From NCBI GenBank assembly GCA_046261835.1, contig JBHEOA010000176.1:8588-72587 (forward strand): a stretch of 64,000 nt of DNA. Direction: 5' to 3'. This document shows positions 2,790 through 62,958 of the stretch, piece by piece (the first letter of the stretch is position 1; each line of letters starts with the position of its first letter). Under the pieces are notes generated by a model that saw nothing but the letters and a program-made list of their open reading frames with translations, made no database searches and was not told the DNA's origin. This stretch comes from Gemmatimonadota bacterium. Its GTDB lineage: Bacteria > Gemmatimonadota > Gemmatimonadetes > JACCXV01 > JAHWKZ01. The position numbers were made by a program, and so were the translations under genes.

Positions 2790-3167
2790 TTCGGGGGTCC
2801 AGCCCTTCGCTCCATCCTGCCGGTCGCGCTGTCGCTCGTGGCGGCATGCGCGACCGGCGTCGGGGCGGAGCGCCCCGCCCACCAGATCGTGGTCGAAGTC
2901 GTCAACGACCTCGTCCCACCCCGAAGTGTGACGATCCAGATGCTGGCCAGCGATCGTGTCACCCGCACGTTGGGAACGGTGGGAGCCGGGGAGACGCGCA
3001 GATTCTCGTTCCGCGAGCGATTGCTCGGCGGGGCCTACCGCATGACGGCCCGGATCGATCAAGGGAACGAGATGGCCTCGGAGGTCTTCACGCTCTTTCC
3101 GAACGCGCACGTCTTCTGGGACCTGAGAAGGAACCTCCTGACGGTCGGATCGCAGGGAGGGATGTGA
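2790..3167 (+). CDS. small secreted lipoprotein of unknown function (start codon unresolved)
   Basis: Protein-like translation with lipoprotein signal ...ALRSILPVALSLVAACATG, stop TGA at 3165-3167. AGGAGG lies at 2781-2786, but there is no in-frame ATG/GTG/TTG upstream of the signal peptide. The only candidates are CTG at 2817 or ATC at 2814. The alternative frame (2846 ORF) is Arg-rich junk. Confidence 0.45.
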   Translation, partial: FGGPALRSILPVALSLVAACATGVGAERPAHQIVVEVVNDLVPPRSVTIQMLASDRVTRTLGTVGAGETRRFSFRERLLGGAYRMTARIDQGNEMASEVFTLFPNAHVFWDLRRNLLTVGSQGGM

Positions 3168-3613
3168 GCCGCCTCGGGATCCTCGCGGTGGGATGCCTCG
3201 CCGTCGCCGGGTCGGCCTGCTACCGCTACACTCCCGTCGAGACGGACGCCCCGATCGAGCGCGGGAGGGCGATCCGTGCGTGGCTCGAGCGCCCGACGGA
3301 CGTCCGGCTGACCGAGCTCACCGCGAACGGGGCCCGCGAGGTGCGCGGCGAGGTGATCGGCTGGCGGGGCGACTCGCTGGCTCTGTCGGTCTTCTGGGTG
3401 GTGACGCAGACCCAGTACGAGCATCGGGGTCGGGGCGAGACCGTCCTGATCGCCGGCGACAACATCGCCCGGCTGGAGAAGAAGGAGATCGACCCCGCGC
3501 GCACCGGCGGCTTGACCGCCGGGATCGTCGCCCTGACGGCGGCCGCGGGCTATGCCGTTTCCGGGGGCGGCGGCGGAGACGAGGGCGACAACGGGGGAAT
3601 CCCGCCCCAGTAG
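3164..3613 (+). CDS. small secreted lipoprotein of unknown function
   Basis: GTG at 3164 overlaps the upstream stop (GTGA). Signal VSRLGILAVGCLAVAGSAC has a lipobox. The C-terminus is Gly-rich. Confidence 0.5.
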   Translation: MSRLGILAVGCLAVAGSACYRYTPVETDAPIERGRAIRAWLERPTDVRLTELTANGAREVRGEVIGWRGDSLALSVFWVVTQTQYEHRGRGETVLIAGDNIARLEKKEIDPARTGGLTAGIVALTAAAGYAVSGGGGGDEGDNGGIPPQ

Positions 3614-3634
3614 ATGGCGAGGAGGTCCGAGCCC

Positions 3635-12143: not shown

Positions 12144-12386
12144 ATGCTGTCCCTGACGATCAAGAACGTCCCCCGCGAGGTCTACCGCCGGCTCAAAGAA
12201 CTAGCGGCCGCCAATCGGCGCAGCCTGAACAGCGAGGTGATCGTACGCCTCGAGCAATCGCTGGGCATCAGGAACCTCGATCCCGATGATTTCCTTCGTG
12301 AAGTCGACGAGCTCCGTGAGAGCCTGAACGTCACGCCGGTCGACGACGAAGCCCTTCGGACGATGAAGGCCGGGGGACGACCCTGA
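12144..12386 (+). CDS. vapB: VapB-type antitoxin (Arc/CopG/RHH-like, plasmid-stability StbC-like)
   Basis: 80 aa with N-terminus MLSLTIKNVPREVYRRLKELAAANRRSLNSEVIVRLE, typical of RHH antitoxins. Immediately upstream of the PIN-domain gene. Confidence 0.8.
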   Translation: MLSLTIKNVPREVYRRLKELAAANRRSLNSEVIVRLEQSLGIRNLDPDDFLREVDELRESLNVTPVDDEALRTMKAGGRP

Positions 12387-12796
12387 TCGCGACCGACACC
12401 AATGTCGTCGCCGCCTTGTTCCTCTCCGGGCCGCGAACGTCACAGGCACGGATCGCCTTTCGCAAGGACAATGAATGGATCGCGCCTCATCTCTGGCGGA
12501 GCGAGTTCCGCAACATCCTCGTGAGCTACATGCGCCGTAGGGAACTGAGCACCGTACAGGCGCTCAGGCTGGCGACGACGGCGGAGCGATTGTTCGAAAG
12601 GCGGGAGATGCCGGTGCGCTCCGAGCGCGTCCTCGACCTGGCGGCCGAGTCGGGATGCACGGCCTACGACTGCGAGTTCATTGCCGTGGCACAGGATGCC
12701 GGAACTCTCCTCGTCACCGACGATTTTCAGTTGCTTTTGGCGTTTCCAGGTGTCGCGATTTCGCTGGCCGCTTTCGTGGGGGACGAGTCGACGTAG
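12383..12796 (+). CDS. vapC: VapC PIN-domain toxin (probable CTG start overlapping the vapB stop)
   Basis: PIN-domain N-terminus (L/M)IATDTNVV... includes the catalytic Asp. The first in-frame ATG/GTG/TTG (TTG at 12416) lies downstream of that Asp. CTG at 12383 overlaps the vapB TGA (CTGA). Confidence 0.75.
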   Translation: MIATDTNVVAALFLSGPRTSQARIAFRKDNEWIAPHLWRSEFRNILVSYMRRRELSTVQALRLATTAERLFERREMPVRSERVLDLAAESGCTAYDCEFIAVAQDAGTLLVTDDFQLLLAFPGVAISLAAFVGDEST

Positions 12797-24753: not shown

Positions 24754-24871
24754 CCCCCTCCTCGCCGGGGGGATTGGCGCCTCCCTCCCGCGGCACTACA
24801 CTGGATCCCTGAGAAGGAAAGGACCGACCACGCGGCGCCCTGCATCCCTCCCCGTCCGCCCGGCGATCGCC

Positions 24872-27800: not shown

Positions 27801-28057
27801 ATTGCGCCGAGGCGAGGGACGAGAGCGGCTTGGACCAGGACGGCGTAACGTTGCCCGACGGCGAGTTCAGCTTTTCGACGGGCGACTCCAACGCGCCGTT
27901 CGGCCTTCGACTGGTGGACGCCCGTGCGTCTTTTGGTGTCGGCGTGCGGATGAACCTCTTCGGGTTCGCCGTCATGCGATTCGACTACGCTGTGCCGACG
28001 GATCTGGCGTCGCTGGGCAATGGCAAGGTCCTCTTCACCCTGGCTCCCGAGTTCTGA
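24872..28057 (+). CDS. large outer-membrane protein: HExxH domain, PD40 beta-propeller repeats, Omp85-like C-terminal barrel (paralog B)
   Basis: GTG start followed by a hydrophobic leader. HELVH motif followed by downstream EGMAEY. Repeated SPDG...(AF) PD40 motifs. The C-terminus (...RFDYAVP...FTLAPEF) ends in Phe. Same architecture as the 9025-12072 protein. Confidence 0.75.
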   Translation: MVAFLLLLPSPASPQFGKNKVQYQAFDFRVLETDHFHIYYYPEEEAAVMDAARMAERGYARLAKVFRHQWDEKKPLILYASQSDFQQTNIFRFQLDEGIQGVTEGLRNRIVLFFPSAYPDFDHTLTHELVHAFQYDIMRRGALSQGNHPFAFRPPLWFLEGMAEYLSTGEIDAQTAMWLRDASLSGYLTSLDELSSVGDIRVYRFGQGIWYYVGTKYGDEKIGEIMQKAPLVGVDEAFKDVIGLTLEELSDDWLEAVRLTYFPQALAFQPAQSVAERLTSHVRERTSINIAPAVSPDGRRVAFLSDRDYFNDLYVADLDDPSNPDKLVKGERTASFESLRFLRAGVAFSPDGEYLAFSSKAGEQDALYIMHVDDEEIVAVHRFGLEGIETPSWSPDGERLVFTGLEGGTSDLFVVGREGTDLRRLTHDRFGQRDPTWSPDGGRIAFTTEFGPGTDFELLAYDDYKIGILDLASGGITYVPDQAGRNINPQWGPEGRTLAYVSDRTGIANIFLYDFDRGTHHQLTDLLTGVSGVTETSPALSWSRDGRTMVFSAFADAGWDLYRLDDPLALVREPYVSRAESEFDLAASVFVPEDEERPADVTSSPGGAGPGAANGDKPAGSQTTEVSTVGRRPDPFGIPLDERRPRRAERPPMRIPSFEDPVDVPTLLEDPTLGLPRDTSTYEIRPYEIEFQPDIIAQPEVGFVTGLGAFGASQLAFSDLLGDHNLYVAASVYGSVTDSDLFFTYANLRRRLNWGASAFQFRSDFAPLAVSSVDDVTLLYRSDVYRGGQLFGAYPLSRFRRVEFGAVAAYVDRRIAKFEVFAAAPEIEEDLPDQGFAAPSAAYVYDTAYYGSTGPVGGSRQRLEVQRAFGDQAFTQLYGDVRSYWLLRRDLTLASRLLFLGVYGQHAENLRFQSIGGPTLLRGYEFRDPKLRGTEVGLLNVELRFPIADRPHIAGALFPPLRGALWFDLGYARCSGNCAEARDESGLDQDGVTLPDGEFSFSTGDSNAPFGLRLVDARASFGVGVRMNLFGFAVMRFDYAVPTDLASLGNGKVLFTLAPEF

Positions 28058-29721
28058 AGTCCGCTGCTCCCTTCCTGGCCCGCGACCTCTTCGCGACAGC
28101 CGTTTTCCTTGCCGTCTTCGTCTTCGTGGGACACGCAAACGTGCAAGGGCAATCGAAGGCCAACTCCTACGACGACCTAGTCGAGCTCTTCTTCGCGTGG
28201 CGCGAATTCCAGGCTCCGGAGATGATCGTGGGCGTGCCGGATTACGGCCGCGAGGCGATGGAGCGCCAGCATCGGGAGCTCGCCGAATGGCAGCGACGTC
28301 TCGGTGCCATCGACACGACCGGATGGCCGGTGTCGCAGCAGATCGACTGGTACCTCGTCTGGGCGGAGATGAACGGGCTCGACTTCGAGCACCGGGTCAC
28401 TAGGCCGTGGGAGAGAGATCCCGCCTTCTACGTCTGGCTCTTTCCTTCCCCGACCGACGTGCCGGCGCGCGAAGGGCCGAACATCCACGCCAGGATCGAG
28501 CTACCGAGCTACGCGCGGCCACTCTCCGCAGCCGATGCCGAGGAAATCGCCGACCGGCTACGGAAGGCAGACGCCCTGTTCCAAGCGGCGCGCATCAACC
28601 TGACGGGCAACGCGCGAGACCTCTGGCTCACGGGCATCCGCAGCATCCGGGAGCAGAGCGAGGACCTCGCAGTCTTCGCCGAATCGGTGAAAGACACTCA
28701 CCCCGATCTCGCCGCCGCGGCTCTCGAGGCGCGCGCCGCGTCGGACGAGTTCGCGGGCTGGCTGGCCGAACGAGCAGGGTCCAAGACCGGGGTGTCCGGC
28801 GTCGGCAAGGAGAACTACACGTGGAATCTCAGGAACGTCCACCTCCTGCCGTATTCGTGGGAAGACGAGGTGCTGCTGCTCGAGCGCGAGCTGGCGCGCG
28901 CCCACAGCTCGCTTCGCCTCGAAGAGCATAGGAACCGCGACCTCCCGGAGCTCTCGCGGATCGACGATGCCGCGGACTACGACCGGCTCGTGAACGAGGC
29001 TGTGAGCGAGTACATGGATTTCTTGGAGGAGGAAGAGATTCTGCCGGTCAAGGGTTACATGGACGCCGCCCTTCGGGCCCAGATAGGACGGTTCACGCCG
29101 ACCGAGGGGCTGCGCGGATTCTTCGACGAAGTCGTTTACAGGGATCCGATCGTGATGCGAACACATCACTATCACTGGTTCGACCTGGCTCGCATGCGAG
29201 AGGAGCCCAACGAAAGTCCCATCCGCAGCACGCCACTCCTCTACAACATCTTCGACGGCCGCGCAGAGGGTATGGCCACCGCCATGGAGGAGATGATGAT
29301 GCACACGGGGTTGCTGGACGACCGACCCCGAGCACGCGAACTCGTCTGGATCATGCTCGCTCAACGCGCGGCGCGCGGTCTGGGCGGCCTCTACCAGCAC
29401 GGGCTGGAGATGGACTTCCACGAGGCGACGGGCTTCGCTTCGAAATGGACGCCGCGAGGTTGGCTTCCGGCGGAGGGAAGCACGATTCACCACGAGGAGC
29501 AGTTCTATCTCAGGCAGCCGGCTTACGGCGGGAGCTACATCATCGGCAAGATCGAGATCGAGAAGCTGGTTGCGGAATATGCACGGCAGCGGGAGGGCCG
29601 CTTCGTGCTTGCCGATTTTCTGGACAATTTCAACCGGGCGGGTGTCATTCCGGTGTCCCTCATCTATTGGGAATTGACCGGCGACAAATCCATGCTCGAG
29701 GAAGCAATCGGCGCGCGGTAG
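28054..29721 (+). CDS. secreted DUF885-like protein (probable CTG start overlapping the upstream stop)
   Basis: In-frame signal peptide (M/L)KSAAPFLARDLFATAVFLAVFVFVGHA begins at the CTG at 28054, inside a CTGA junction with the paralog-B stop. No ATG/GTG/TTG precedes the signal peptide. The C-terminus (...YLRQPAYGGSYIIGKIEIEKL...) resembles DUF885 proteins. The antisense ORF 28558-29493 is rejected. Confidence 0.55.
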   Translation: MKSAAPFLARDLFATAVFLAVFVFVGHANVQGQSKANSYDDLVELFFAWREFQAPEMIVGVPDYGREAMERQHRELAEWQRRLGAIDTTGWPVSQQIDWYLVWAEMNGLDFEHRVTRPWERDPAFYVWLFPSPTDVPAREGPNIHARIELPSYARPLSAADAEEIADRLRKADALFQAARINLTGNARDLWLTGIRSIREQSEDLAVFAESVKDTHPDLAAAALEARAASDEFAGWLAERAGSKTGVSGVGKENYTWNLRNVHLLPYSWEDEVLLLERELARAHSSLRLEEHRNRDLPELSRIDDAADYDRLVNEAVSEYMDFLEEEEILPVKGYMDAALRAQIGRFTPTEGLRGFFDEVVYRDPIVMRTHHYHWFDLARMREEPNESPIRSTPLLYNIFDGRAEGMATAMEEMMMHTGLLDDRPRARELVWIMLAQRAARGLGGLYQHGLEMDFHEATGFASKWTPRGWLPAEGSTIHHEEQFYLRQPAYGGSYIIGKIEIEKLVAEYARQREGRFVLADFLDNFNRAGVIPVSLIYWELTGDKSMLEEAIGAR

Positions 29722-30004: not shown

Positions 30005-31801
30005 ATGCCCCTCCCGTCCGCGCCCGCCACGGGTGAGATGCACGATTTCGAGCTCGACGACGATTTCTGGCCAGGGGTTCTGGGTGCGCTTCGAGAGGAC
30101 ACCCCGGTGGATTACCTCGGGGACCGTTGGCCGGCTTTCGCCGAGCTCGTCGAGGGCCTCGTCGCCGATGCCGAGCGGGAGCCGATCCTAGTCGGCTTCC
30201 GCCTCGCCACTCACGGTCGGAATCCTCGTCTCTTCGCCGTACTGACGGGCGCCCTCCTCGCGCGCTCGCGAATCCCTACGCTCGTCCTCGATCTGAGCCC
30301 CGATACACGCTGGCTCGAGCAGCTCCTCGGCGCCGATTACAAGGAAGGATTCGTCGACCACGTCCGCTTCGGCGCGCCGCTCGCGCAATGCACGAGGGAA
30401 ACGGGGCTCGATGGGTTGTGGGCCATGAGCGGCGGCACCTGGTTCCTCGCCGGTTCGCCGCTCGACGATGCACCGGGGTTCCGCGCCGGGCTCGAAGAGC
30501 TACGACGTCACCATGGCGCGGTGATCGTCACCCTGCCGCCCCCGCTCGAGGCGGGCGACCGCACGGGCATCGCCGCGCTCTGTGGGGCACTGGTGACGGT
30601 CGAGGAACGAGGGACGGATGCCTCTCTCGCCGGCAGCGAGCGGGCCGTCGTGCGTCTCAAGGGAAACACCGATGCCGCGCGCGACCTGGCGCATCTGACC
30701 CATCACTTCCTGGGTCCTTTGCCGGTCCTGCTCGGCGCCAAGACGACGCCGGTCGCACGGCAGGCGACTTCCACACCCATCGATCGGAAGGCGATCGCGG
30801 GCCGCTCACGGAGCGCCGTGCTCGGAGCAACCGCGGCGGAGAGGGCGCGAGACGAGGACCTCCTCTTCCTGCAAGGGTTCGAGGGTCCGCGACCCGGCCA
30901 TAGTGGTTCGTCCGAGCGTCGCTCGAAGGAGGAACCGAATCGGTCGGAGGAGCACTCGCGTCGCTCGAAGGTTGGGCGTTCGCGCCGATCGAAGGAGGAC
31001 GAGCAGCGGAGCCGATTCCGTCCACGACCAGCGCTGTTCGCGGCAGCCCTGATATTCGGAGCGATCGTGATCGTGGGGATCGTTGGGCACGGGGTCGCGT
31101 TCGACGTCGTTCGCGGGCTCGTCGACGAGCCGGATCGTTCGTATCCCGAGCTCGAGGGCGGGGAGACGATCGCGCTCGACCCCGTTCCCGGATCCGCTAC
31201 GGAGACACTGCCGGTCGATACGGTCGACGGTCTGCCGCCCAGCGTGCTCGCGGCCGATTCGATCCTCCTCGCCGACACGACGACACTGGCCGGATCGACG
31301 CTCGAAGACCAGCAGGCCCTGCTCTCTCGAGGCGCGGGACGCCCCGCGCCTTTCTCAGTCCACGTCGGGTCCTATCAGAGTGCCCGCTCCGCGTTGCGGG
31401 TGGTCGAAGGGGTCGAGGCGATGGGGTACCCGGCGACGCTGTCGCCGGTCACGATCCCGGGCAAAGGACAGTGGTTCCGGATCTATGCCGGCTCCTTCGC
31501 CGACTCGACCGAGGCCATGCGCGCGCGCGACCGTCTCCAGGCGTCGGATCTGGTCGACGAAGGCGTGGTGCGATCGGCGCCATGGACATTCGAGATTGGA
31601 ACCTATCCCTCGCTCGAGGCCGCGCGCGGGGACGCCGCGGCCCTACGCGAGAGAGGTATTGCGGCGTACCCCGTGGGGCGGGAACCGGTTCGCCTCTACG
31701 CCGGCGCTTACCAGTCGCGCGAGGAGGCCGAGCTCCTGGCGCACACCCTGCAATCCGTCCTCGAATCCCGCTCCGCGCGGCTCATCGTGAGGGAGGAATA
31801 G
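30005..31801 (+). CDS. bitopic membrane protein with two C-terminal SPOR (peptidoglycan-binding) domains and an N-terminal cytoplasmic domain of unknown function
   Basis: Central Arg/Ser/Glu-rich linker, then a transmembrane segment (ALFAAALIFGAIVIVGIVG). Two SPOR-like repeats (FSVHVGSYQSARSA...WFRIYAGSF and WTFEIGTYPSLEAAR...RLYAGAYQS). The stop abuts the smc GTG. Confidence 0.7.
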   Translation: MPLPSAPATGEMHDFELDDDFWPGVLGALREDTPVDYLGDRWPAFAELVEGLVADAEREPILVGFRLATHGRNPRLFAVLTGALLARSRIPTLVLDLSPDTRWLEQLLGADYKEGFVDHVRFGAPLAQCTRETGLDGLWAMSGGTWFLAGSPLDDAPGFRAGLEELRRHHGAVIVTLPPPLEAGDRTGIAALCGALVTVEERGTDASLAGSERAVVRLKGNTDAARDLAHLTHHFLGPLPVLLGAKTTPVARQATSTPIDRKAIAGRSRSAVLGATAAERARDEDLLFLQGFEGPRPGHSGSSERRSKEEPNRSEEHSRRSKVGRSRRSKEDEQRSRFRPRPALFAAALIFGAIVIVGIVGHGVAFDVVRGLVDEPDRSYPELEGGETIALDPVPGSATETLPVDTVDGLPPSVLAADSILLADTTTLAGSTLEDQQALLSRGAGRPAPFSVHVGSYQSARSALRVVEGVEAMGYPATLSPVTIPGKGQWFRIYAGSFADSTEAMRARDRLQASDLVDEGVVRSAPWTFEIGTYPSLEAARGDAAALRERGIAAYPVGREPVRLYAGAYQSREEAELLAHTLQSVLESRSARLIVREE

Positions 31802-34800
31802 GTGAAGCTCCAACGTCTCGACCTCTTCGGCTTCAAGTCGTTCGCCGACCGTGTGTCGATCGAGTTCAATCCCGGGATGACCGCGATCGTCGGTCCCAAC
31901 GGATGCGGCAAGAGCAACATCTGCGACGCCATCCGCTGGGTGCTGGGTGAGCAGCGACCGACCCTCGTTCGAGGCTCCAAGATGGACGAGGTCATCTTCG
32001 CGGGCAGCCGCGAGCGCAAGCCGATCCATTACGCCGAGGTGCTGCTCCATTTCTCGAACGAGGACGGCGTTTTACCGGTGGAGTACAGCGAGGTCTCGAT
32101 CGCGCGTCGCATCTACCGGGAGGGCGAGGGCGAGTACCTCCTGAACAAGCATTTCTGCCGGCTCAAGGACATTCAGGATCTACTCATGGGCACGGGGATC
32201 GGTACGCATGCCTACTCGCTGATCCAGCAGGGAATGATCGACGTGGTGTTGTCGGATCGGACCGACGAGCGTCGCTATCTCTTCGAAGAGGCGGCCGGCG
32301 TCACGCGGTACAAGACGCGGCGCAAGGCGGCGGAGCGGAAGCTGGAGGCCACGACCCAGGACTTGCTGCGCGTCGAAGACATCGTGACGGAGGTCGAGAA
32401 GAACGTCGGCGCGCTCAAGCGACAGGTGGGAAAGGCGCGGCGCTTCCGCGAGTACGAGGCCGAGGAAACGCGCCTCGATGTCCACGTCGCCGCGCGTGAA
32501 GGGGCGCTCCTTGCCACGCGGCGCGAACCTCTTGGCATCGAGCTCAAGGCGCTCGAGACCACCGACGCCGATCAGGCGGCCCGCCTCGCCGAACGCGAAG
32601 CTGAGCTCGAAGGGCTGGAGCTCGATCTCGCGAGCGGTCGCGGCGAGGAACAGGCCGCGCGCGTACACGCGGAAGACCTGCGGAGCCGGATCAGCCGCCG
32701 CGACCAGTCCCGGCTGGTGACCGCCGAGACCTTGAGCCATAACGCGCGCCGGTTGGAAGCCCTGGTGGCCGAGGACGAGCGGGCCGACGAACGCACGGCA
32801 GAGCTCACGGCGCGCCGCGCGTCGCTCGAGAGGGACCGCGACGAGGCAGCCGAGCGTCGGGAGCGCATCGTCGCGCGCCTCGAGCCGGAAGGAGACATGG
32901 CGGTCGAAGACGAGCACCACGCCGAGCGCAAGGCGGAGCGCGCGCGACTGGTTGCCGAAGCGGAGGCGCTCCAGGAGCGCAGCGCCGAGGCCCGGCAGGC
33001 GGCCGCTCGGCTGACGAGCGCAGCCGAGGCAGCCGTCGAGCGCCACGCCGCACTCGCCATCGAGCGGGACGAGCGGCGCGAGGCTCTCACCGGCGCCTCC
33101 GCCGCGGCGGTAGCCGCCCGTGAGAGGCTCGCGGCCTCGCGAACCAGCCACGAGGAGGCGCGTTCGCTGGCGGCCGAGCGCCAGCTGGCGCTCCGTGACG
33201 CCGCGCGCGGGCTCGAGGGTGCCCGCGAACAGGTCGCGGCCGCGCGCGCCGCCGAGCGGGCTGCGGCGAGCCGACACCAGACGCTGGCAGCGCTGGAGTC
33301 GCGCCTCGAGGGGTACGGCGAAGGCGCGCGCGCGCTCCTCGGAGCCGAATCTCCGGTGCGGGGTATTTCCGGGGCCCTGCCCCAGGCGGTCGAGCCCATG
33401 GAGCCCCGTTTCGAGCGCCCGCTCGACCGCTACCTCGAGTCGTTGGGCCACGCGCTGCTCGCGCGCGACCGTAGCGCTGCGGTCCAGGGAGCCGAGCAGC
33501 TCGCCGAGCAGGGCGGCGGCCGCGCCGACTTCCTGATCCCCGAGTTCGTCCCCGACGGGACGATCCCCGAGCTCCCCGACGAAGCGGCTGCGGTCGTGCT
33601 CGCGCGCGGATCCGATGTTGCGCGGTGGACAGGAGACCAGGGACTCGCGGCGCGGCTCGCGCCCTTGTTCGCCCGGCTCCTGGTGGTCGCTGACCGCGAG
33701 GCCGCCTTCCGCTGCCGGTCGGCGCTACTCGCCGATCCGATGGCGGCACGCCATTTCGCCATCGCGGGGCTCGACGGAACACTGGTCGAGCCGACCGGCC
33801 GCTGGCGAACCGCGGGTGACGTGGGGGAGGAGGGCCTCCTCGCACGCCGTCGATTGCTGGCCGAAGCGGCGCGCGACTACGACGAGCGGCGCGCAGTCCT
33901 GGGCGCGCACGAACTGGCGCTGAAGGAAGCCGAACGCGAGGTCGTAGACGCTGAGGCGGCGCTCGCCAGCGCTCAGGTTCGCCAGGCAGAGATCGACCAG
34001 ACACACCGCGCCGCGCGCGAAGAGGCCGCGGTCGCTGAGCAGATCGAAGCCCAGATCGCAGGGCGCGTCACGGAGCTCGAGACGGCGGTAGCGGAGGAAA
34101 GCGAGCGGCGCGACCGCGCCGAGGGGGCCCATGTCCGCGCGGCCGAGGCATTCGCCGCATCGGAGCGTGACCAGGCGCTGGTCCGGGAGCGGCTCGAGCA
34201 GGTCCAGGGAGCCCTCGAGCGCTACGAGGAGGTGCGCCGCGCGCGTTTGTCGGCGCGTCACGCGGTCGAGCTCGAGCGCGCCGAGGCGGAAGCAATGCTG
34301 CGCGCCGTCGAGCGCGAGATCGAGCACCTCACGGTGGCCGAGGAGTCCCTCCGTCATGCGCGGGACGAGCGCGCCGCCGAGCGCGCCCGCCTCGAGCAGG
34401 GGAGCGCGGAGCTCGAAGCCGAGCGCATCCGCCTGGCCGTGGAGATCGAGGCGCTGTACGGCGACCTCGACGCGGCGACCGAGAGGTTGCGTGAGTCCGA
34501 GGCGCGCCACCACGGAATCGAAGAACGGAGAGCCAGGCTGGAGACCGAGATCCGTGCCCTCCGCCGCGAGCACGAAGAGACGATGGAGCGCCGTCATCGC
34601 GTGTCGCTGACGCTCCAGGATGTCGACTTCCGCCGGGAGGCCCTCGATGTGCACCTGGCCCAGATCTACGACTCCCCGCTCGAGGCCCTGGTCGAGCGCC
34701 ATCCATTGACCGAGGAGGAGGCGGGGCTGGAGCTCGATGCGCTCCGGCAACGGTTCGAGGAGGTCCGCCGACGGCGGATCAACCTGGGCCCGGTAAACAT

Positions 34801-36774: not shown

Positions 36775-37819
36775 CCTTGCAGCAGTCGCGGGCACGCCCG
36801 AGATTCGGCCGTTCGTGCGCGCGACATCCTTCACTGCTCTCGCGATCGTGGCGTTCCTCGGAATCGTCGCGCCGTCGCCTGTGGCCGCTCAGGACGAGAT
36901 CGATGACGATTCGGGGCTCATCGGTCTGAGTCTACCGCTGGGCGCGCGCGCGATCGGGCGTGGACGGGCGATCTCGGCCACCGCCGGCGAGCTCCAGGCG
37001 CTGCCATACAACCCGGCGGCGGTCATGGGCCTCGGGCGAGGTGCCTTGACGTACAGTCGCTTCGAGGCGGCCGACGACGCGGAATTCAACGGCAATTATC
37101 TCGCTGCCGGCGCCGACACGCGCTGGGGAACGGTCGCTATCCAGGTGATCTACTTGGATTACGGCGATGTGCCTGTCACCGAAACGTCGCCCGATCCAGT
37201 TGGCTCGATCGAGATCAGCGATTGGGCGCTCGGCGCGACCTACGCCAACCGGATCTACGGCGAGAAGCTGGCCTACGGCGCCACCCTGAAGTGGCTGTCC
37301 ACCAACCTCGGTTCGATCGACGCCAGCGGTCCCGCGCTCGACGCCGGGCTGGTTTATTCGCCGCGATCGGGCCTGCCCCTGACCTTGGGCATCGCCCTGC
37401 GAAATCTGGGGCCGGATCTCGATTTCGGGGGGACGACGGAAGGTGAGGATGCACAAGGCGAGGAAGCCCTCCCGTCGCGCGTGCGCGTGGGGGTCGACTA
37501 CCGACCGACGACCTTCCCTGGCCTCCCCTCCGACTACGCGATCGAGCTCGGATTCGACATCGAGAGCGATCTCCGCGATCTCGCGACCTCCAGCCAGCAC
37601 GCCGGCGCGTCGATCACGATCCATCAGATCGTCGTCGTCCGCGGGGGCCTGCTCCTGCTCGACAATCCCTACGCCAGAGGGAGCACCGCCAACCGGATAA
37701 CGGGGGGCGCCGTCGGAGTCGGCGTCCGCTTCGGCGGGTTCGAGGCCGACGTCGCGCGCGAGATCTCGGTGAGCGAGCTGGGCGACGAAACGCACTTCGC
37801 GGTCGGATGGCGATTCTGA
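36761..37819 (+). CDS. outer-membrane beta-barrel protein (PorV/PorQ/UPF0164-like), C-terminal Phe
   Basis: Signal peptide (an alternative GTG start at 36812 is also possible). Alternating amphipathic strands. GARAIGRGRA motif. Ends ...FAVGWRF. Confidence 0.6.
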   Translation: MRIVDLAAVAGTPEIRPFVRATSFTALAIVAFLGIVAPSPVAAQDEIDDDSGLIGLSLPLGARAIGRGRAISATAGELQALPYNPAAVMGLGRGALTYSRFEAADDAEFNGNYLAAGADTRWGTVAIQVIYLDYGDVPVTETSPDPVGSIEISDWALGATYANRIYGEKLAYGATLKWLSTNLGSIDASGPALDAGLVYSPRSGLPLTLGIALRNLGPDLDFGGTTEGEDAQGEEALPSRVRVGVDYRPTTFPGLPSDYAIELGFDIESDLRDLATSSQHAGASITIHQIVVVRGGLLLLDNPYARGSTANRITGGAVGVGVRFGGFEADVAREISVSELGDETHFAVGWRF

Positions 37820-39588: not shown

Positions 39589-40455
39589 GTGAACTTTCTG
39601 GGGTTGAGTGACGAGGAGACGCGGTACGAGGCGTGTCGTGGGGTCGTGGTGCCGGTGCCGTACGAGGCTACCGTATCGTACGGTGGAGGCACGGCGCGGG
39701 GGCCGGCGGCGATCCTCGAGGCTTCGGGGTACGTCGAGCTGTACGACGAGATCCTGCGCGAGGAGCCGTACCGGAAAGGCGGCATCCACACCCACGCCGC
39801 AGTCGAAGCCGGTCCGGACGAGGGTGCGGAAAGCTTCATCGACCGTCTCACGGAGGTCGCATCTCGTCTCTATGCCGACGACAAGTTCCCGATCTTTCTC
39901 GGAGGTGAGCACACGATCACCACCGGTCCTGTCCGCGCCGCCCGGGCGGCGTACGAGGATCTCTCGGTCCTCCAGTTCGACGCCCACGCCGATCTTCGCG
40001 ACCGTTATCAGGAGACCCCATGGTCCCACGCCTGCGTCATGCGGCGTGTGTTCGAGCTCGGGGTCTGGATCGTGCCGATCGGAATCCGCGCCGTGTCGGT
40101 GGAGGAGGCGGAGTTCATCCGCGAGGAGGACCTGCCCGTCTTCTGGTCGCATCGCATCGCCCACGGCGGCGGATGGATGGAGACCGCGCTGGCCGCCCTG
40201 ACCGACAACGTCTACGTCACGTTCGACGTGGACTTCTTCGATCCGGCCGTCATGCCCGCTACGGGGACGCCCGAGCCCGGCGGCGGGTCCTGGCACGAGA
40301 CCCTGCACTTCCTGGGGAAGGTGTTCCAGCAGAAGCGCGTCGTGGGGATGGACGTCGTCGAGCTCGCGCCGATCACCGGTCTCCACGCGCCCGATTTCGT
40401 CGCCGCGCGGCTGGTTCACCGCGCCTTCGGCTACAGGTTCCACGACTGGGGGTAG
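39589..40455 (+). CDS. speB: agmatinase (arginase-family ureohydrolase)
   Basis: GTG start gives N-terminus MNFLGL...VVVPVPYEATVSYGGGTARGPAAILEAS. Mn-ligand motifs GGEHTIT, DAHADL and DVDFFDP. Confidence 0.85.
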   Translation: MNFLGLSDEETRYEACRGVVVPVPYEATVSYGGGTARGPAAILEASGYVELYDEILREEPYRKGGIHTHAAVEAGPDEGAESFIDRLTEVASRLYADDKFPIFLGGEHTITTGPVRAARAAYEDLSVLQFDAHADLRDRYQETPWSHACVMRRVFELGVWIVPIGIRAVSVEEAEFIREEDLPVFWSHRIAHGGGWMETALAALTDNVYVTFDVDFFDPAVMPATGTPEPGGGSWHETLHFLGKVFQQKRVVGMDVVELAPITGLHAPDFVAARLVHRAFGYRFHDWG

Positions 40456-40932
40456 GTGTTGGAGATTCGCGAGATCGAGCTGCCCGGAATCGGTCGCAAG
40501 TATGCCTTGCTCACCGAGGACGGTGCGCGACTGACGGTGATCCTCCACAACAGCGGCCATCGCGAGATTTATCTCTTCGACAAAGGCGCCGATTTCCCGA
40601 CCTCCGCCGTCCGCCTTGACGACCGGGATGGCCGAGGGCTCGGCGCGATCCTGGCGGGCGCCTATTACCAGCCCGTCGGCGAGGCGGATCTGGCCACGGT
40701 GCTCGGCCAGATGGCGATCGACTGGCATGAAGTCGGACCGGCGATGGCAGGGCGGACGATCGGCGCACTCGAGATCCGCTCCAAGACGGGTGCCAGCGTG
40801 ATCGCCGTCCTTCGGAAGGAAGGCGCGCTGCCCAACCCGGGACCAGGCACGACCTTGCGTCAAGGCGACACTCTCGTGCTGATCGGCACCCGCGAGCAGA
40901 TCGAGGCGTTTCGTCGTCGCTTCGCCTCGTAG
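40456..40932 (+). CDS. TrkA-C domain regulatory protein (KhtT-like) of a K+/H+ antiporter
   Basis: GTG immediately after the speB stop. C-terminal TrkA-C fold (...GRTIGALEIRSKTGASVIAVLRKEG...GDTLVLIGTREQIEAF). Followed by a CPA2 antiporter gene. Confidence 0.7.
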   Translation: MLEIREIELPGIGRKYALLTEDGARLTVILHNSGHREIYLFDKGADFPTSAVRLDDRDGRGLGAILAGAYYQPVGEADLATVLGQMAIDWHEVGPAMAGRTIGALEIRSKTGASVIAVLRKEGALPNPGPGTTLRQGDTLVLIGTREQIEAFRRRFAS

Positions 40933-46446: not shown

Positions 46447-47372
46447 CCGCCGAAAATCACATTGGGGCGCGTTGCCTGATCCCCGCCGCCGGGCGCGGCA
46501 CGCGCCTCTTGCCGATCACGCGAACCGTGCCCAAAGCGCTCCTTCCGGTCGGCACGCGGCCGATGCTTCAGTGGTGTCTGACCGAGGCGCTGGAAGGTGG
46601 ATTCGACGAGATCGCCGTCGTCGTCGGATCCGATCAACCGCTGCTCGAACAGTATGTCCGCGATGGAGAATGGCGCTCGGGCATCCTGCCCTCTCTGTAC
46701 GGGCGGGCCGAGGCGGTCGAGATCCAGATCGTCAGGCAGGCGAGGCCGAGCGGAGTCGTCGACGCGGTCCTCGTCGCGCGTGAATGGGTGGAAGAGGAGC
46801 GCCCGTTCGCGGTTCTCCTCCCCGACAACGTGCGGATCGCTGGCTCGCCGCCGATCCGGGCTGAGCATCTTTCGGATGCGGAGGCGGAGGACGTCGTCCT
46901 GATCGCCTGTCACCGCGTCGGACCCGAGGCGCGTGACTACTACGGCAATGTTGGTCGAGTCGAGCTCGAGGCGCTGGCCCCGGCCGGAGCGCGACGCCGC
47001 GTGGCCGCGCTCCAGATGCGCGGTGAGGGATCGTTTCGCGCCGAACCCGAGGGCGCCTGGCGGCTCGCGCCCCGGTACACGGTGACACGGCCGTGGATCG
47101 AGGTGGCGCGCGCAGTGGCCGCCGCTGCGTCAGGTGAGCGGGAGGCCGACGACGTCGAGGTCCATCGGCGGCTCGTCACCGACGGACGCTTGTTCGCCCT
47201 TCCATGGCAGGGCACGATGGTGGACGCCGGTCATCCGGGCGGCTACCTCTGGGCGCATCATCTGCTCCACGAAGCGTCGAGCAGCGATCGCGAGGCGGCC
47301 GAGGAGGAGCCGTCGGCTCCACTCCTGCAAGTAGAGGGCTTGCAAATGAAGCCACGTCCATCGGGGGTCTAG
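46443..47372 (+). CDS. sugar-phosphate nucleotidyltransferase (UTP-glucose-1-phosphate uridylyltransferase/GalU-like) with an unusual C-terminal extension
   Basis: GTG overlaps the pilD stop (GTGA). LIPAAGRGTRLLPITRTVPKALLPVG is the nucleotidyltransferase G-loop. Confidence 0.7.
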   Translation: MTAENHIGARCLIPAAGRGTRLLPITRTVPKALLPVGTRPMLQWCLTEALEGGFDEIAVVVGSDQPLLEQYVRDGEWRSGILPSLYGRAEAVEIQIVRQARPSGVVDAVLVAREWVEEERPFAVLLPDNVRIAGSPPIRAEHLSDAEAEDVVLIACHRVGPEARDYYGNVGRVELEALAPAGARRRVAALQMRGEGSFRAEPEGAWRLAPRYTVTRPWIEVARAVAAAASGEREADDVEVHRRLVTDGRLFALPWQGTMVDAGHPGGYLWAHHLLHEASSSDREAAEEEPSAPLLQVEGLQMKPRPSGV

Positions 47373-48170
47373 ATGGAGGATATCCGTTATACGCTGGTGG
47401 GGAGCGGCACGTGCATCCCCGACGCCGAGCGCGGTCCCGCAGCCCACCACTTCAAGTGCGGAGATGTGACGCTGCTCTGTGATCTCGGCTCCGGGACGCT
47501 GCGGCGCATGGACGGGCTCGGGATTCGTTTCTCGGAGCTCGATCTGGTTGCCGTGACCCACCGGCACCAGGACCACATCGCCGATCTCCTGCCGCTGATC
47601 TTCGCACTCAAGAACACTCCCGGTGTGGATCGCGTCCGTCCCCTCACGCTGACCGGATACCCGGGGTTCCGCGCAGACCTCCAGCAGCTCGCGGCGGTCT
47701 ACGGCGAATGGGTGGCGGATCCAGGTTTCCCGCTCGATGTCTACGAGGCGAACGACACGCCGATCGAGATCGAGCGCCAGCATGGTCGCGTGGAGATCGA
47801 GGCCCACCCGGTCGTCCACACGCCCGAGGCGGTGGGATACCGTCTGACGATGTCCGCCGGGGGCCGCGAGGTCGTGGTCGCCTATACCGGCGACACCGAG
47901 GAGAGCCGGGAGGCGGTCGACCTCGCGCGCGACGTCGACCTTCTGATCGCCGAATGTTCGATGGCCGACGGTCTCGAGGTGCGCGGCCACCTGAGCCCGC
48001 GCGCGGCGGGGCGGATCGCGGCCGAAGCTTCCGCCCGCCGGCTGGTCGTCACTCACTTCTATCCCTCCGTCCTCGCACTCGGCTGGACCGAGGTCGAGCG
48101 TCGGATCCGGGAGGCCTATCCGCACGATCCGGTCGATCTCGGGGCCGACGGGCTCGAGATCGAGCTGTGA
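47373..48170 (+). CDS. MBL-fold metallo-hydrolase (RNase Z-like)
   Basis: THRHQDH (HxHxDH) motif. Confidence 0.75.
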   Translation: MEDIRYTLVGSGTCIPDAERGPAAHHFKCGDVTLLCDLGSGTLRRMDGLGIRFSELDLVAVTHRHQDHIADLLPLIFALKNTPGVDRVRPLTLTGYPGFRADLQQLAAVYGEWVADPGFPLDVYEANDTPIEIERQHGRVEIEAHPVVHTPEAVGYRLTMSAGGREVVVAYTGDTEESREAVDLARDVDLLIAECSMADGLEVRGHLSPRAAGRIAAEASARRLVVTHFYPSVLALGWTEVERRIREAYPHDPVDLGADGLEIEL

Positions 48171-51655: not shown

Positions 51656-52543
51656 ATGATCGGACGTCTCCCAGCCGAATTCACGCTAGTCCGGCTCATC
51701 CTCGCCGGACTCTCCGTGGTGTTACTCTCACTCGTGCTGTTCTCCGTATCGCTTTCCGTCCTCGTCCCGACCGCCAGCGCCCAGGTGCTTCGCTACGGCG
51801 GCCCGCCCGGAACCACCCGCACCTACGTCCGCGAGCAGCGCGACCACGTCGTCCAGACCGTCGACGGGCGACCGACCGCCACCGACATCCAGAGCTACTG
51901 GCGGCTCCGGACGCGGGTCGCAGCCGAGACGACGGATGACCTCACGATCGGGATCGTCCACGACTCGCTTGCGATCACCGGGGCCCCGTCGATCGGGGAC
52001 CTGGGGATCGAGGCGCTGGGGCGCACCCCGATCGAGATCGTGCTCACACGGCGCGGCGCGGTGCGCGAGCTGGAGGTGCCCGCCGAACTCACTCCACTCA
52101 CTTCACGCCTCGACCTCGAGACCACCTACCGGTCGTTCTTTCCGCGCCTTCCGGAGACGGCCGTGGTCGACGGGCTCGTATGGTCTGACACGACCCGGGT
52201 GGCCACCCGCCAGAACGGGCTGGACCTCCAGGTCGTCCGCGTCAACCGCTACACCAGCAAGGGTTGGGCCATCTCGGGGGAGAATCGGGTGATCCGGGTC
52301 GCCTACGAGTCCGATCTCACGATCGAGGGAAGCGGCCAGCAGCAGGAGGCGGCGGTCGCTTTGAGCGGCTCCGGCCGAGCGACAGGGGCGTTCGACTTCG
52401 ATCCCCGGGCCGGAGCGTATGTGGGAGGAGGCGAGAGCTCCACGATGAACATGGTCGCGATCGTTACTTCACAAGGACAAAACCTTGTGATACCCATCGA
52501 ACAGAATCGAACAGAAACGATCACATCAGAACCATCGAGCTAG
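51656..52543 (+). CDS. hypothetical exported/membrane-anchored protein
   Basis: ATG start with signal anchor (LILAGLSVVLLSLVLFSVSLSVLVPTASA). No recognisable domain. Confidence 0.45.
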   Translation: MIGRLPAEFTLVRLILAGLSVVLLSLVLFSVSLSVLVPTASAQVLRYGGPPGTTRTYVREQRDHVVQTVDGRPTATDIQSYWRLRTRVAAETTDDLTIGIVHDSLAITGAPSIGDLGIEALGRTPIEIVLTRRGAVRELEVPAELTPLTSRLDLETTYRSFFPRLPETAVVDGLVWSDTTRVATRQNGLDLQVVRVNRYTSKGWAISGENRVIRVAYESDLTIEGSGQQQEAAVALSGSGRATGAFDFDPRAGAYVGGGESSTMNMVAIVTSQGQNLVIPIEQNRTETITSEPSS

Positions 52544-52624
52544 TTGTCACGTTTCGATCGATCTTCTGCTACGGTTCGATGTCGATTTGCGAGCACCGGT
52601 CCACGACTTGCGAGGGCCGGAATC

Positions 52625-60158: not shown

Positions 60159-60737
60159 GTGACAGACTATAAAGTTAGAAGATTCTCATTAGTGAGTCAA
60201 GGAAGATCCGCTGGATCGGCGATGGCGATGCTCCTGACCGTTTTGGCTTGCGCGGCTCCCGTCTCGACGATGCGGAGTCCCTATCATCTCCGCGTGGTCG
60301 AGGTCCGTAACGATTCGGATCAGCTCCGCACCCTCAAGATCGAACCGGCCGCGGACCAGCACCTCGGCTCCGCCACCACCTTCACCGGCATGCTGCGTCC
60401 CGGCGAGGTCAAGGTCCTCTACCTGTATCACGGCTTCGAGTACGACTTCCGGATCCTTGACCCGGCCGGCTTCAACGAGGTGACGCGGACGACGGTCGCG
60501 GTCGACCGCGACATGGGCCTGTTGTTCGCCGGCGATTCGCTGACCACCGGGACCCGGCTGGTCGCGCGGATCGGCGAGCCCACGGTGACCTTCGCCGACA
60601 GTCTCCAGGAGTCCGACCCCTTCGGACTGCGTCGCACCCGCGCGATCGAGCCCGACACGAGCCGTGGGCACTATCCTTCACCCGCCGGAGGCCACGTCGG
60701 CGAGCGGGGGAATCCCGAGAAGAGGGGAACGCCGTAG
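60159..60737 (+). CDS. hypothetical lipoprotein
   Basis: Signal peptide with lipobox (MAMLLTVLAC). The start may be GTG at 60192 or ATG at 60222 rather than 60159. An AT-rich divergent promoter region lies at 60134-60200. Confidence 0.45.
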   Translation: MTDYKVRRFSLVSQGRSAGSAMAMLLTVLACAAPVSTMRSPYHLRVVEVRNDSDQLRTLKIEPAADQHLGSATTFTGMLRPGEVKVLYLYHGFEYDFRILDPAGFNEVTRTTVAVDRDMGLLFAGDSLTTGTRLVARIGEPTVTFADSLQESDPFGLRRTRAIEPDTSRGHYPSPAGGHVGERGNPEKRGTP

Positions 60738-60769
60738 CCCGCTCCGCGCCGCGCCGGCGAAGGGCCGGG

Positions 60770-61438
60770 AAATCGGCGCGCGAAGTCCGAGCCATCCTCG
60801 ACGCGCTCGGCAGAGCGTACCCCGAGGGACGAACCGCTCTCGACTACCAGACCCCGTTTCAGCTCCTCGTGGCGACGATCCTCTCGGCCCAGTGCACCGA
60901 CGTTCGCGTGAATGCGGTCACGCCCGAGCTCTTCGCGGATCACCCCGATGCCGAGGCGATCGCCTCCATGAGCCAGGAAGACCTGGAACGGGCCATCAAG
61001 ACGTGCGGGCTCTACCGCGGCAAGGCACGGAACATCCTCGCCGCAGCGCGCACAATCGCATCCGAGCATGGGGGCGAAGTACCCGCTTCACGCGAGGCGC
61101 TCGAGCGACTCCCGGGAGTGGGCCGCAAGACCGCCAACGTCGTCCTCTCGAACGTCTTCGACGAGCCGGCGATCGCCGTCGACACGCACGTCTTCCGCGT
61201 TTCGCGCCGGCTCGGACTAGCCCGAGGAGATACGCCGCGCGAGGTCGAGGAGGAGTTGATGGCTGCGCTGCCGCCAGAATCGTGGACGTCGGCTCATCAC
61301 CGCCTCATCCTCCACGGGCGCCGCGTCTGTCAGGCGCGTCGTCCGCGCTGCGAAGAGTGTCCTTTGACCCGCTGGTGCGATTGGTATCAGGAGAACGTCG
61401 CTCGGCGAAAACCGGCTGCCCGGCGAACGAGGCGCTAG
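60770..61438 (+). CDS. nth: endonuclease III (5' boundary unresolved)
   Basis: ...ILDALGRAYPEGRTALDYQTPFQLLVATILSAQCTD. Helix-hairpin-helix LPGVGRKTANVVL. Catalytic DTH. [4Fe-4S] cluster C-x6-C-xx-C-x5-C. The conserved N-terminus extends about 30 codons upstream of the first in-frame canonical start (GTG at 60869). Confidence 0.8.
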   Translation, partial: KSAREVRAILDALGRAYPEGRTALDYQTPFQLLVATILSAQCTDVRVNAVTPELFADHPDAEAIASMSQEDLERAIKTCGLYRGKARNILAAARTIASEHGGEVPASREALERLPGVGRKTANVVLSNVFDEPAIAVDTHVFRVSRRLGLARGDTPREVEEELMAALPPESWTSAHHRLILHGRRVCQARRPRCEECPLTRWCDWYQENVARRKPAARRTRR

Positions 61439-61449
61439 CTTTGAAGAGA

Positions 61450-62109
61450 ATGTCGCTTCCCGAGCTCACGTGGCGCTTCGCCCGCGAAGCGCTGCCCTTT
61501 TTTGTGGGGTTGCTCGCGATTGCCGCCACGGCGTGGGCGCTGGGGTGGCCGCTGGTAGCGCTGGGCTCGCTTTTGGCGGCGTTCCTCGCCCTCGCCTTCT
61601 TCCGTGATCCCGAGCGTCGAACGCATGCCGATCCGGGAGTCGTGCTCGCCCCGGCTGACGGTCGCGTCGTGCGCGTCCTTTCCCCGGCCCAGGGACGGGG
61701 CGCCGTGATCTCGATTTTCCTGTCGATCTTCAACGTCCACATCAACCGGGTTCCCGTCTCGGGGCAGGTGGTTGCGGTGGAACAGAGTCCCGGCGGCTTC
61801 AAGCCCGCGTTTCGCGAGGACGCCTCCGAACGGAATGCCCACGTCGCTGTGCGCATCGAGACGCCCTGGGGAATCGTCGAGTGTGTTCAGATCGTGGGGC
61901 TTCTCGCGCGCCGCATCGTGTGCCGCCTCAAGCCTGGAGATCGGATCGAGGCGGGACAGCGCTACGGTCTAATCCAGTTCGGCTCGCGCGTAGACGTCCG
62001 ACTGCCTGCGACCGCCGCGGTTCTGGTCGAGATTGGTCGCAGGACACGCGCCGGCGTGACGGTGCTCGCACACTTGGGGGGCGATGCGCCCCGGGGAGCC
62101 GCAGTCTGA
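61450..62109 (+). CDS. psd: phosphatidylserine decarboxylase-related protein (short Asd/Psd type)
   Basis: About 219 aa. ...FRDPER..P.DG....N.HVNRVPVSG...NER.A...ETPWG...QIVGLLARRIV...FGSRVD. TTG at 61441 is an alternative start. Confidence 0.75.
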   Translation: MSLPELTWRFAREALPFFVGLLAIAATAWALGWPLVALGSLLAAFLALAFFRDPERRTHADPGVVLAPADGRVVRVLSPAQGRGAVISIFLSIFNVHINRVPVSGQVVAVEQSPGGFKPAFREDASERNAHVAVRIETPWGIVECVQIVGLLARRIVCRLKPGDRIEAGQRYGLIQFGSRVDVRLPATAAVLVEIGRRTRAGVTVLAHLGGDAPRGAAV

Positions 62110-62906
62110 GACCTAGATTCGAGCCCGTCCTGCGCGAGACCCGGCGGGCCCGGCTGCGACGCCGGATCCACCTTCTGCCGGACCTTTTCACGATTGGCAA
62201 CCTCTTCGCCGGCTATTTCGCGGTCAGCGCCGTCCTTGCTGGGCTATTCGACCGGGCGGCGATCGCGATCGTCGTCGGCTTCGTGCTCGACTCCCTCGAC
62301 GGTTCGGTGGCCCGGCTCGTCCGCACGCCTTCTCGGATCGGCGTCCAGCTCGACTCGCTGGCCGATGTCGTGACCTTTGGAATTGCTCCCGCGATCCTGG
62401 CATTGGCGTGGGGCGCCTGGCCCGCGTCGGCTACCGACCCGGTTTGGGGCGCACATCTGCGGCGATTGGCGTGGATCGCCTCATTCGCGTTCGTCGCCGC
62501 CGGCACTCTTCGCCTCGCGCGCTTCAACGTGATGTCCACGGCCCATGCGCCCGCTGCGCCGACCACGCGGCGCGAAGCGTTCATCGGAATGCCGATACCG
62601 GTCGCGGGTCTGTGCGTCGCCATCGTCCTTCATCTGATCAAAGCACCCCAGCGGGGGTGGCCCTACAGCGCCGCCGGGCTCGTCTATCTCTTCACTCTCG
62701 CCGGACTCATGGTGAGCCGCATCCCATTCCCCCACTTTCGGCACATCCTGTCGAGTCCCCGACATCCCCACCTCCTGATGCTCGTGCTTGCCCTGCTCCT
62801 GCCCGCCCTTTACTTCTACTCGGAGATCGTGCTCTTTGGTCTTCTCGGCCTGTATCTTTCCAGCGTCGTCCTGTACAACGTCCGGCGGCGCCACGGAACC
62901 GGCTAA
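62106..62906 (+). CDS. pssA: CDP-diacylglycerol--serine O-phosphatidyltransferase (CDP-alcohol phosphatidyltransferase family); probable CTG start overlapping the psd stop
   Basis: LPDLFTIGNLFAGY...DSLDGSVAR...G..LDSLADVVTFGIAP is the CDP-OH phosphotransferase motif. No ATG/GTG/TTG is in frame before that motif. CTG at 62106 sits in a CTGA junction with the psd TGA. Confidence 0.75.
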   Translation: MRPRFEPVLRETRRARLRRRIHLLPDLFTIGNLFAGYFAVSAVLAGLFDRAAIAIVVGFVLDSLDGSVARLVRTPSRIGVQLDSLADVVTFGIAPAILALAWGAWPASATDPVWGAHLRRLAWIASFAFVAAGTLRLARFNVMSTAHAPAAPTTRREAFIGMPIPVAGLCVAIVLHLIKAPQRGWPYSAAGLVYLFTLAGLMVSRIPFPHFRHILSSPRHPHLLMLVLALLLPALYFYSEIVLFGLLGLYLSSVVLYNVRRRHGTG

Positions 62907-62958
62907 ACGGGGACCTGCCCACCGGAGTTTGAGTCACGACAACGCGAGGAGTTCTCGT

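Follow-up and report, generated by a model that had tools for sequence, protein, structure and literature searches.

The window analysed here is a 64,000-nucleotide (nt) stretch of a Gemmatimonadota bacterium with a GC content of 67.9%, whose nearest relatives are Gemmatimonadota metagenome-assembled genomes. In our best-guess gene map it holds ~61 genes and ~45 same-strand neighbour pairs. At three of its junctions the TGA stop codon of one gene is overlapped by a CTG in the frame of the next co-directional gene: between vapB and vapC, between a gene for a HExxH/PD40 protein and a DUF885 gene, and between psd and pssA (Table 1). These three CTGA junctions had been proposed in the initial annotation of the stretch; their positions and frames were confirmed, as were the gene identities by Pfam. 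At all three sites TGA and NTG share the TG, giving a 4-nt overlap, and at all three N is C, so that the overlapping codon is none of the recognised starts ATG, GTG and TTG. For vapC and pssA, orthologs start at this overlap.

Table 1. Positions of the genes, junctions and other features discussed in the text (window numbering unless a relative is named; ORF, open reading frame; aa, amino acids; SD, Shine-Dalgarno).
Feature	Position	Strand	Remarks
vapB antitoxin, FitA-like ribbon-helix-helix	12144..12386	+	Pfam PF22513, E 7.7e-11; ATG 12144; ends CGA CCC TGA
SD-like G-rich GGGGGA, 5 nt before CTG 12383	12372..12377	+	Read directly; duplex -8.6 kcal/mol, rank 13/60
CTGA junction 1	12383..12386	+	vapB TGA overlapped by CTG in the vapC frame
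vapC PIN-domain toxin, 137 codons from CTG	12383..12796	+	Pfam PIN PF01850, residues 4-115 = profile 3-112
HExxH/PD40 (Tricorn-like, protease-like) protein, 1061 aa	24872..28057	+	ORF; ortholog in L032 has Tricorn/PD40 Pfam matches; ends GAG TTC TGA, C-terminal Phe
CTGA junction 2	28054..28057	+	Upstream TGA overlapped by CTG in the DUF885 frame
DUF885 protein, 555 codons from CTG	28054..29721	+	Pfam DUF885; signal-peptide-like N-terminus (M)KSAAPFLARDLFATAVFLAVFVFVGHA
psd phosphatidylserine decarboxylase	61450..62109	+	Pfam PF02666 (PS_Dcarbxylase), E 8.5e-37; C-terminus aligns with psd of relatives; ends GCA GTC TGA
SD-like GGGGAG, 7 nt before CTG 62106	62093..62098	+	Read directly; duplex -6.4 kcal/mol, rank 20/60
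CTGA junction 3	62106..62109	+	psd TGA overlapped by CTG in the pssA frame
pssA CDP-diacylglycerol-serine O-phosphatidyltransferase, 266 codons from CTG	62106..62906	+	Pfam CDP-OH_P_transf, residues 23-189 = profile 2-138
nth 5' ends compared	window 60734-60870; L096 1450-1590; L097 1100-1260; L001 1540-1640		
GTGA overlaps	3164, 17437 (minus strand), 46443, 48167, 48532, 57667, perhaps 5020		Census
TTGA overlaps	24343 RsfS, 36322 Fur, 54154 UvrD-like		Census
ATGA overlap	63552		Census

The vapB and vapC genes form a type II VapBC pair, with a ribbon-helix-helix antitoxin directly 5' of a PIN toxin that has an N-terminal acidic residue. The vapC frame opens at 12320, behind an in-frame TGA (12317-19), and its first ATG, GTG or TTG is the TTG at 12416. 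Counted from the CTG, the catalytic Asp is codon 5, and the first canonical start lies past it, as initially claimed. About 115 of 120 VapC homologs begin M/V-I-V-V-D-T-N, with the start codon in register with the window CTG; the window protein reads (L)-I-A-T-D-T-N, and its 'IATDTN' aligns with the 'IVVDTN' of the homologs. In a 70% relative (L093), the codon aligned to the CTG is the GTG of a GTGA. CTGA itself is kept in L092, a relative at 85% identity from an unrelated sequencing run (Logan run SRR28401889), with synonymous differences nearby. The ratio of non-synonymous to synonymous substitution (dN/dS) was calculated for vapC against L092 and for the DUF885 gene against L031, relatives that both share the CTG. 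For vapC it was 0.171 (dS 0.42), and the first 11 codons, from the CTG to TTG 12416, showed 2 synonymous and 0 non-synonymous changes. A codon-usage log-odds score trained on 21 long window genes gave these 11 codons +9.9. The gene caller applied to L092 shortened its vapC to 126 aa, and NCBI VapC P0121 (136 aa, 'MATDTNVV', apparently from the same genome) starts one codon later, at ATC 12386. The tryptic N-terminal peptide expected for VapC is MIATDTNVVAALFLSGPR with the CTG start and MATDTNVVAALFLSGPR with the ATC start.

At psd/pssA, all seven distinct Gemmatimonadota junctions, the window included, overlap by 4 nt. The sequence aligned to the pssA CTG is ATGA in L035/L058, L039 and L097, GTGA in L001 and L034/L036, and TTGA in L002. 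The nearest full-length PssA homologs, P0241 and P0242 (78-80% identity), start with M-R-P where the window protein has (L)-R-P; the offset of the conserved LLPxLFT motif is 23 in both of them and in the window PssA. In L096, at 94% identity and from another metagenome, CTGA is kept and neighbouring substitutions mark a separate sequence; its pssA was cut by the JGI caller at the GTG equivalent to 62283. The step from ATGA, found in the 80% relative L097, to CTGA, shared by L096 and the window, appears recent. Upstream of the CTG, the pssA frame contains GTGs at 61881 and 61920, both inside psd. The codon score was -54.7 from GTG 61881 to the CTG, and +23.4 over the 59 codons from the CTG to GTG 62283. 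The segment LPDLFTIGNL, which the initial annotation took for the CDP-alcohol phosphotransferase motif, is indeed a conserved N-terminal segment (Pfam profile position 2 onward) but was mislabelled, the catalytic DG..AR..D...D lying downstream, where it would survive a start at GTG 62283. A second psd/pssA CTGA considered in L040 was dropped, as its upstream frame is only 15 codons long and in-frame ATGs lie 48-60 nt upstream.

Close homologs of the DUF885 protein are mostly ~545-565 aa long and start with M and a signal peptide; the window form counted from the CTG has 555 aa. An in-frame GTG lies upstream at 27766, inside the preceding gene. The codon score was -55.7 from this GTG to the CTG, and +15.1 over the 24 codons from the CTG to the first downstream GTG, 28126. 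The same CTGA is present in L031 (92% identity, an independent JGI assembly), whose caller cut DUF885 inside the signal peptide. Against L031, dN/dS was 0.165 (dS 0.27) for the gene and omega was 0.40 for the signal-peptide segment from the CTG to the first GTG; the position of that GTG differs between the window and L031. A start at the DUF885 overlap is supported by conservation and coding signal, with no canonical ortholog at the same codon.

The per-codon score was about -0.6/-0.7 upstream and +0.4/+0.9 from each CTG, and the coding signal thus flips sign at the CTGs. The far-upstream GTGs of pssA and DUF885 would add 62-96 residues overlapping the preceding gene. The initial claim that no canonical start lies upstream is therefore strictly true of vapC, whereas pssA and DUF885 do have upstream GTGs, whose extensions score as non-coding. 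The dN/dS values across CTG-sharing lineages show that DUF885 and vapC are under purifying selection while carrying the CTG. The relatives that keep CTGA have 85–94% protein identity to the window. For all three proteins, close relatives have been shortened by automatic callers, and public annotation is inconsistent. Neither the window PssA, in seven start versions, nor the window DUF885 protein, in three, had an exact match in a collection of 15 billion proteins.

To place these junctions among their neighbours, the overlaps of the window were counted. There are 13-14 overlaps of the -4 type among the ~45 same-strand pairs, with N being G in 6-7, T in 3, C in 3 and A in 1. Pfam families were found for 9 of the 10 overlap genes tested, the gene at 3164 being the one without a Pfam match. 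Thus, of the many ATGA and GTGA junctions initially described, the GTGA class stands, ATGA occurs only once, and TTGA must be added. CTGA at a stop is common by itself, because third codon positions in the window are 46% C. A CTGA at 37816-37819, in register with a downstream gene, was coincidental, the true ATG lying 9 nt upstream at 37807, and the tetranucleotide alone is therefore not diagnostic. The three cases are singled out by missing usable canonical starts together with homology, not by the tetranucleotide. They make up 3 of the ~61 genes and 3 of the 13-14 overlaps; in model genomes, annotated CTG starts are reported to be far rarer than 3 in ~61 genes (bioRxiv 10.1101/063800). The unusual frequency of CTG starts initially proposed for the organism holds only as a statement about this window.

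A second tight layout was also seen in the window, in which TAG directly abuts the next start. It occurs at five same-strand pairs: 3611-3616 (TAG|ATG), 31799-31804 (TAG|GTG), 40453-40458 (TAG|GTG), 47370-47375 (TAG|ATG) and 52541-52546 (TAG|TTG). Together with the -4 overlaps it accounts for ~40% of same-strand pairs. Among 59 window gene models, the stop codons are TAG in 27, TGA in 27 and TAA in 5, making TAG as common as TGA.

Taken together, the orthologs with canonical starts, the conserved CTGA, the selection on the genes and the codon score support the initial proposal that CTGA is a variant of the same coupling device as the other overlaps. On this comparative evidence CTGA would be a fourth form of NTGA overlap between stop and start, and translation of the downstream gene would begin at the CTG or right beside it. 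We consider it likely that in each of vapC, the DUF885 gene and pssA, translation begins at the CTG overlapping the TGA of the preceding gene.

Several observations weigh against this interpretation. A canonical start at the DUF885 overlap was seen in none of the relatives, and L031, with its CTGA, was the only one to have the overlap; L032 (83%) has a 120-nt spacer and a separate ATG for DUF885, and in L094 DUF885 stands in a different upstream context. The DUF885 CTG has no SD-like sequence. The SD-like G-rich stretches of vapC and pssA were matched or beaten by 6-18% of random positions (6% for vapC), and anti-SD duplex energies at the CTG sites, ranked among 60 starts and against random positions, were indistinguishable from those of random GC-rich positions. 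C at N is predicted by third-position composition, and conservation over a dS of 0.3-0.4 is no evidence of selection for CTG. C is in fact rarer at the overlaps than third-position composition would give (3/14 versus 46%, p about 0.05); CTG therefore looks tolerated, not preferred. Finally, further near-cognate codons stand in frame at all three genes, namely ATC 12386 in vapC, CTG 28075 in DUF885, and CTG 62130, CTG 62154 and ATC 62166 in pssA.

Initiation at one of these codons is an alternative that we regard as unlikely. ATC 12386 is the NCBI choice for VapC P0121, the remaining candidates are in-frame codons that precede the conserved segments, and CTG 28075 aligns with an in-frame GTG of L032. 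The initial description of the overlapping CTG as the only plausible initiation codon was thus too strong. However, the N-termini of homologs are in register with the junction CTG and not with the next codon, as in the M-R-P of PssA, and in the M-I-V-V-D of VapC homologs the ATC is accounted for as the codon of a conserved Ile. Furthermore, CTG 28075 is CCG in L031, and CTG 62130 is CTC or GTC in L035 and L058. It is improbable that the proteins are N-terminally shortened through use of the nearest canonical codon downstream (TTG 12416, GTG 28126 or GTG 62283). The JGI and Logan callers did give such forms for relatives (P0122, 126 aa; P0001, 533 aa; P0243, 216 aa), and PssA would keep its catalytic DG..AR motif. 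Yet the short forms lose the catalytic Asp of VapC, the signal peptide of DUF885, and the first 37 Pfam positions and first membrane segment of PssA. The stretches left out by the short forms have positive coding scores, in vapC and DUF885 they are also under constraint, and the downstream DUF885 GTG is not conserved in position.

We think it very unlikely that loss of the start codons has turned these genes into silent or decaying pseudogenes. A change to C at NTGA is the only route by which a start can be lost with the upstream stop kept, and the absence of the window PssA and DUF885 proteins from the protein collection could mean that annotators skipped them or called them pseudogenes. Against this, the full-length vapC and DUF885 ORFs are intact in the window and in relatives, so that neither looks like a pseudogene; codon usage is normal, dN/dS is ~0.17 for both genes across CTG-sharing lineages, and each arrangement is kept in a relative at 85-94% identity. 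pssA together with psd is the usual route to phosphatidylethanolamine. Sequencing or assembly error, with true junctions of ATGA or GTGA, would fit a window that apparently comes from a metagenome-assembled genome, but each CTGA was found again in a different independent assembly (JGI 3300065626, Logan SRR28401889, JGI 3300037697), with flanking substitutions that show separate sequences. Assembly error was therefore ruled out as an explanation. Equally hard to credit is initiation at the far-upstream GTGs (27766; 61881 or 61920), or a programmed -1 frameshift that fuses the two products. In favour of this, pssA and DUF885 have 62-96 open codons upstream that include GTGs, and each downstream gene lies in the -1 frame with respect to its upstream neighbour. 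These extensions, however, score non-coding and are missing from homologs, and for vapC an extension is impossible, given the in-frame stop at 12317. A slippery heptamer X XXY YYZ was found before none of the three stops (CGA CCC TGA, GAG TTC TGA, GCA GTC TGA), and relatives have ordinary start codons at the junction.

If the CTG starts are used, the process would be the known -4 NTGA device of termination and re-initiation, with N = C. NTGA is the commonest coupling layout (PMC12548453, PMC6728339, PMC10666635), and an SD sequence is helpful but unnecessary for re-initiation (PMC2268962). The ribosome that finishes vapB, the PD40 protein or psd would remain on the mRNA, move a nucleotide or two, and re-initiate with initiator tRNA on the CUG, pairing at two of three positions as on GUG and UUG. 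We infer that CUG serves as a start codon, that initiation there requires termination of the upstream gene, and that little product is made. CUG initiation in E. coli reaches ~1-2% of that at AUG (bioRxiv 10.1101/063800), and because CUG is a poor start codon, the downstream protein would be low relative to the upstream one. Low output may suit a toxin that must stay below its antitoxin. A scan of the window for tRNAs, aimed at initiator tRNA, found none.

Such junctions probably arose under the pressure of base composition. N doubles as the third base of the last sense codon of the upstream gene, where there is third-position pressure towards C and G, and at NTGA a change to C would be the only one that loses the canonical start yet spares the upstream stop. 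At the PD40 gene, the overlap is limited to CTG or TTG because the terminal codon encodes Phe (TTY).

In L032, the PD40 gene ends in GAATTCTGA (3866-3875), and the string CAGTTCTGG recurs ~200 nt downstream (about 4066-4074), within the 5' portion of DUF885. The PD40 gene and DUF885 of the window are joined by just one GAGTTCTGA, at 28048-28056. One could speculate that a deletion between short repeats removed the spacer and the original ATG, creating the CTGA overlap. At the other end of the PD40 paralog, ~80 nt before its GTG start (window 24790-24871; L032 620-697) are conserved with L032 and read in frame '..PASLPVRPA..'. A start codon of any recognised kind was not found in L032 620-697, and this conserved segment is probably a leader or promoter region rather than coding sequence.

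Three further genes had been listed as lacking canonical starts or as using CTG. For the small lipoprotein near 2790 this was wrong, as an in-frame ATG at 2754 gives MTTTRTPVRRRGFGGPALRSILPVALSLVAAC. A strong SD-like sequence, AGGAGGGG (2782-2789), stands right after the upstream TAG, and the only canonical start of the lipoprotein, ATG 2754, precedes it; at 5-10 nt from this site, no recognised start was found in the lipoprotein frame. The ECF sigma gene does have a CTG, 62959, 7 nt after GAGGAG; at that codon, all 7 of the more distant relatives compared carry TTG, ATG or GTG. An in-frame TTG at 62929, 10 codons upstream, is common to the window, L097 (3313-3345) and L035 (about 1220-1260). 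In L097, which also has the CTG, this TTG overlaps the pssA stop as TTGA. The 10 codons from TTG 62929 to CTG 62959 score non-coding (-7.7). Given the conserved upstream TTG, the sigma gene was downgraded from a fourth CTG case to an ambiguous one.

The nth gene (Endonuclease III), which gene callers shorten to 181-207 aa, truly lacks a canonical start, as the initial annotation had it, but is not a CTG case. ATG, GTG and TTG were absent upstream of the conserved N-terminus in all four genomes compared (window, L096, L097 and L001; Table 1). The only near-cognate codon shared is ATC 60794. The 10 codons before it, 'AGKSARE(V/I)RA', differ between the window and L097 by five synonymous changes and one conservative change; this suggests that nth is translated from a point 5' of them, in a stretch without any NTG or ATN codon. 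In all four genomes a GTA in the nth frame overlaps the upstream stop, as GTAG, or GTAA in L001; the TAG lies at 60735-60737 in the window. A broader idea, possible but in our view doubtful, is that start-codon selection in this Gemmatimonadota lineage is lax at the first base, with CUG as a routine initiator in several percent of genes and in about one-fifth of stop-start overlaps. On this view, ribosomes that re-initiate might also use codons beyond the standard set, given that nth is without a recognisable start in four related genomes.

Like the canonical NTGA overlaps (PMC6728339, PMC10666635, PMC12548453), of which the window has 10-11, the CTGA junctions join co-directional neighbours that share TGA with NTG, and vapC and pssA have orthologs with the canonical form at the same codon. 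They differ in having C at N, and the resulting codon is counted as a start neither by gene callers nor in the cited surveys. Our literature search for CTGA junctions or CTG starts in Gemmatimonadota found nothing specific; one study retrieved (PMC4648390) is eukaryotic and irrelevant here. With the rare near-cognate starts of translation table 11 (CUG, AUU, AUC, AUA), the junctions share a single first-position mismatch, low expected output and rare annotation. However, the published values (bioRxiv 10.1101/063800) describe SD-led de novo initiation, whereas here the CTG sits on a stop codon, terminating ribosomes would be delivered to it directly, and three cases occur in 64 kb. In the M13 gene V/VII and RNA-phage coat/lysis pairs (PMC2268962, PMC12548453), as proposed for the CTGA junctions, ribosomes finishing upstream translate the downstream gene, with SD helpful but optional; those pairs use AUG, GUG or UUG and were tested experimentally, whereas the CTGA starts are proposed from sequence. 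Other vapBC operons in which antitoxin stop and toxin start overlap have the same order of ribbon-helix-helix antitoxin and PIN toxin and a 4-nt overlap; the difference is the CTG start of the toxin in the window and in its 85% relative. In E. coli, infC, encoding IF3, starts at AUU, and this weak codon keeps its product at a low or regulated level. The AUU start resembles the CTG starts in being weak and non-canonical, and differs in its codon, in the IF3 autoregulatory loop and in the absence of a stop-start overlap. PMC2268962 cites the effect that IF3 has on non-canonical starts.

The CTGA junction is thus best described as a variant of a known device with a clear consequence for annotation, and the support for this interpretation is comparative. 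If conserved CUG starts on stop codons are real, a codon of almost no use in de novo initiation would be acceptable to re-initiating ribosomes, and CUG re-initiation would bear on the question of 30S versus 70S scanning, described as open in PMC12548453. In the window and its relatives, callers cut off the catalytic Asp of VapC, the signal peptide of DUF885 and the first membrane segment of PssA. If first-base discrimination in this lineage is indeed weak, gene callers restricted to ATG, GTG and TTG would shorten or miss an appreciable share of the genes of such high-GC lineages. Should CTGA junctions be common in lineages of high GC, a systematic error would run through metagenome protein catalogues.

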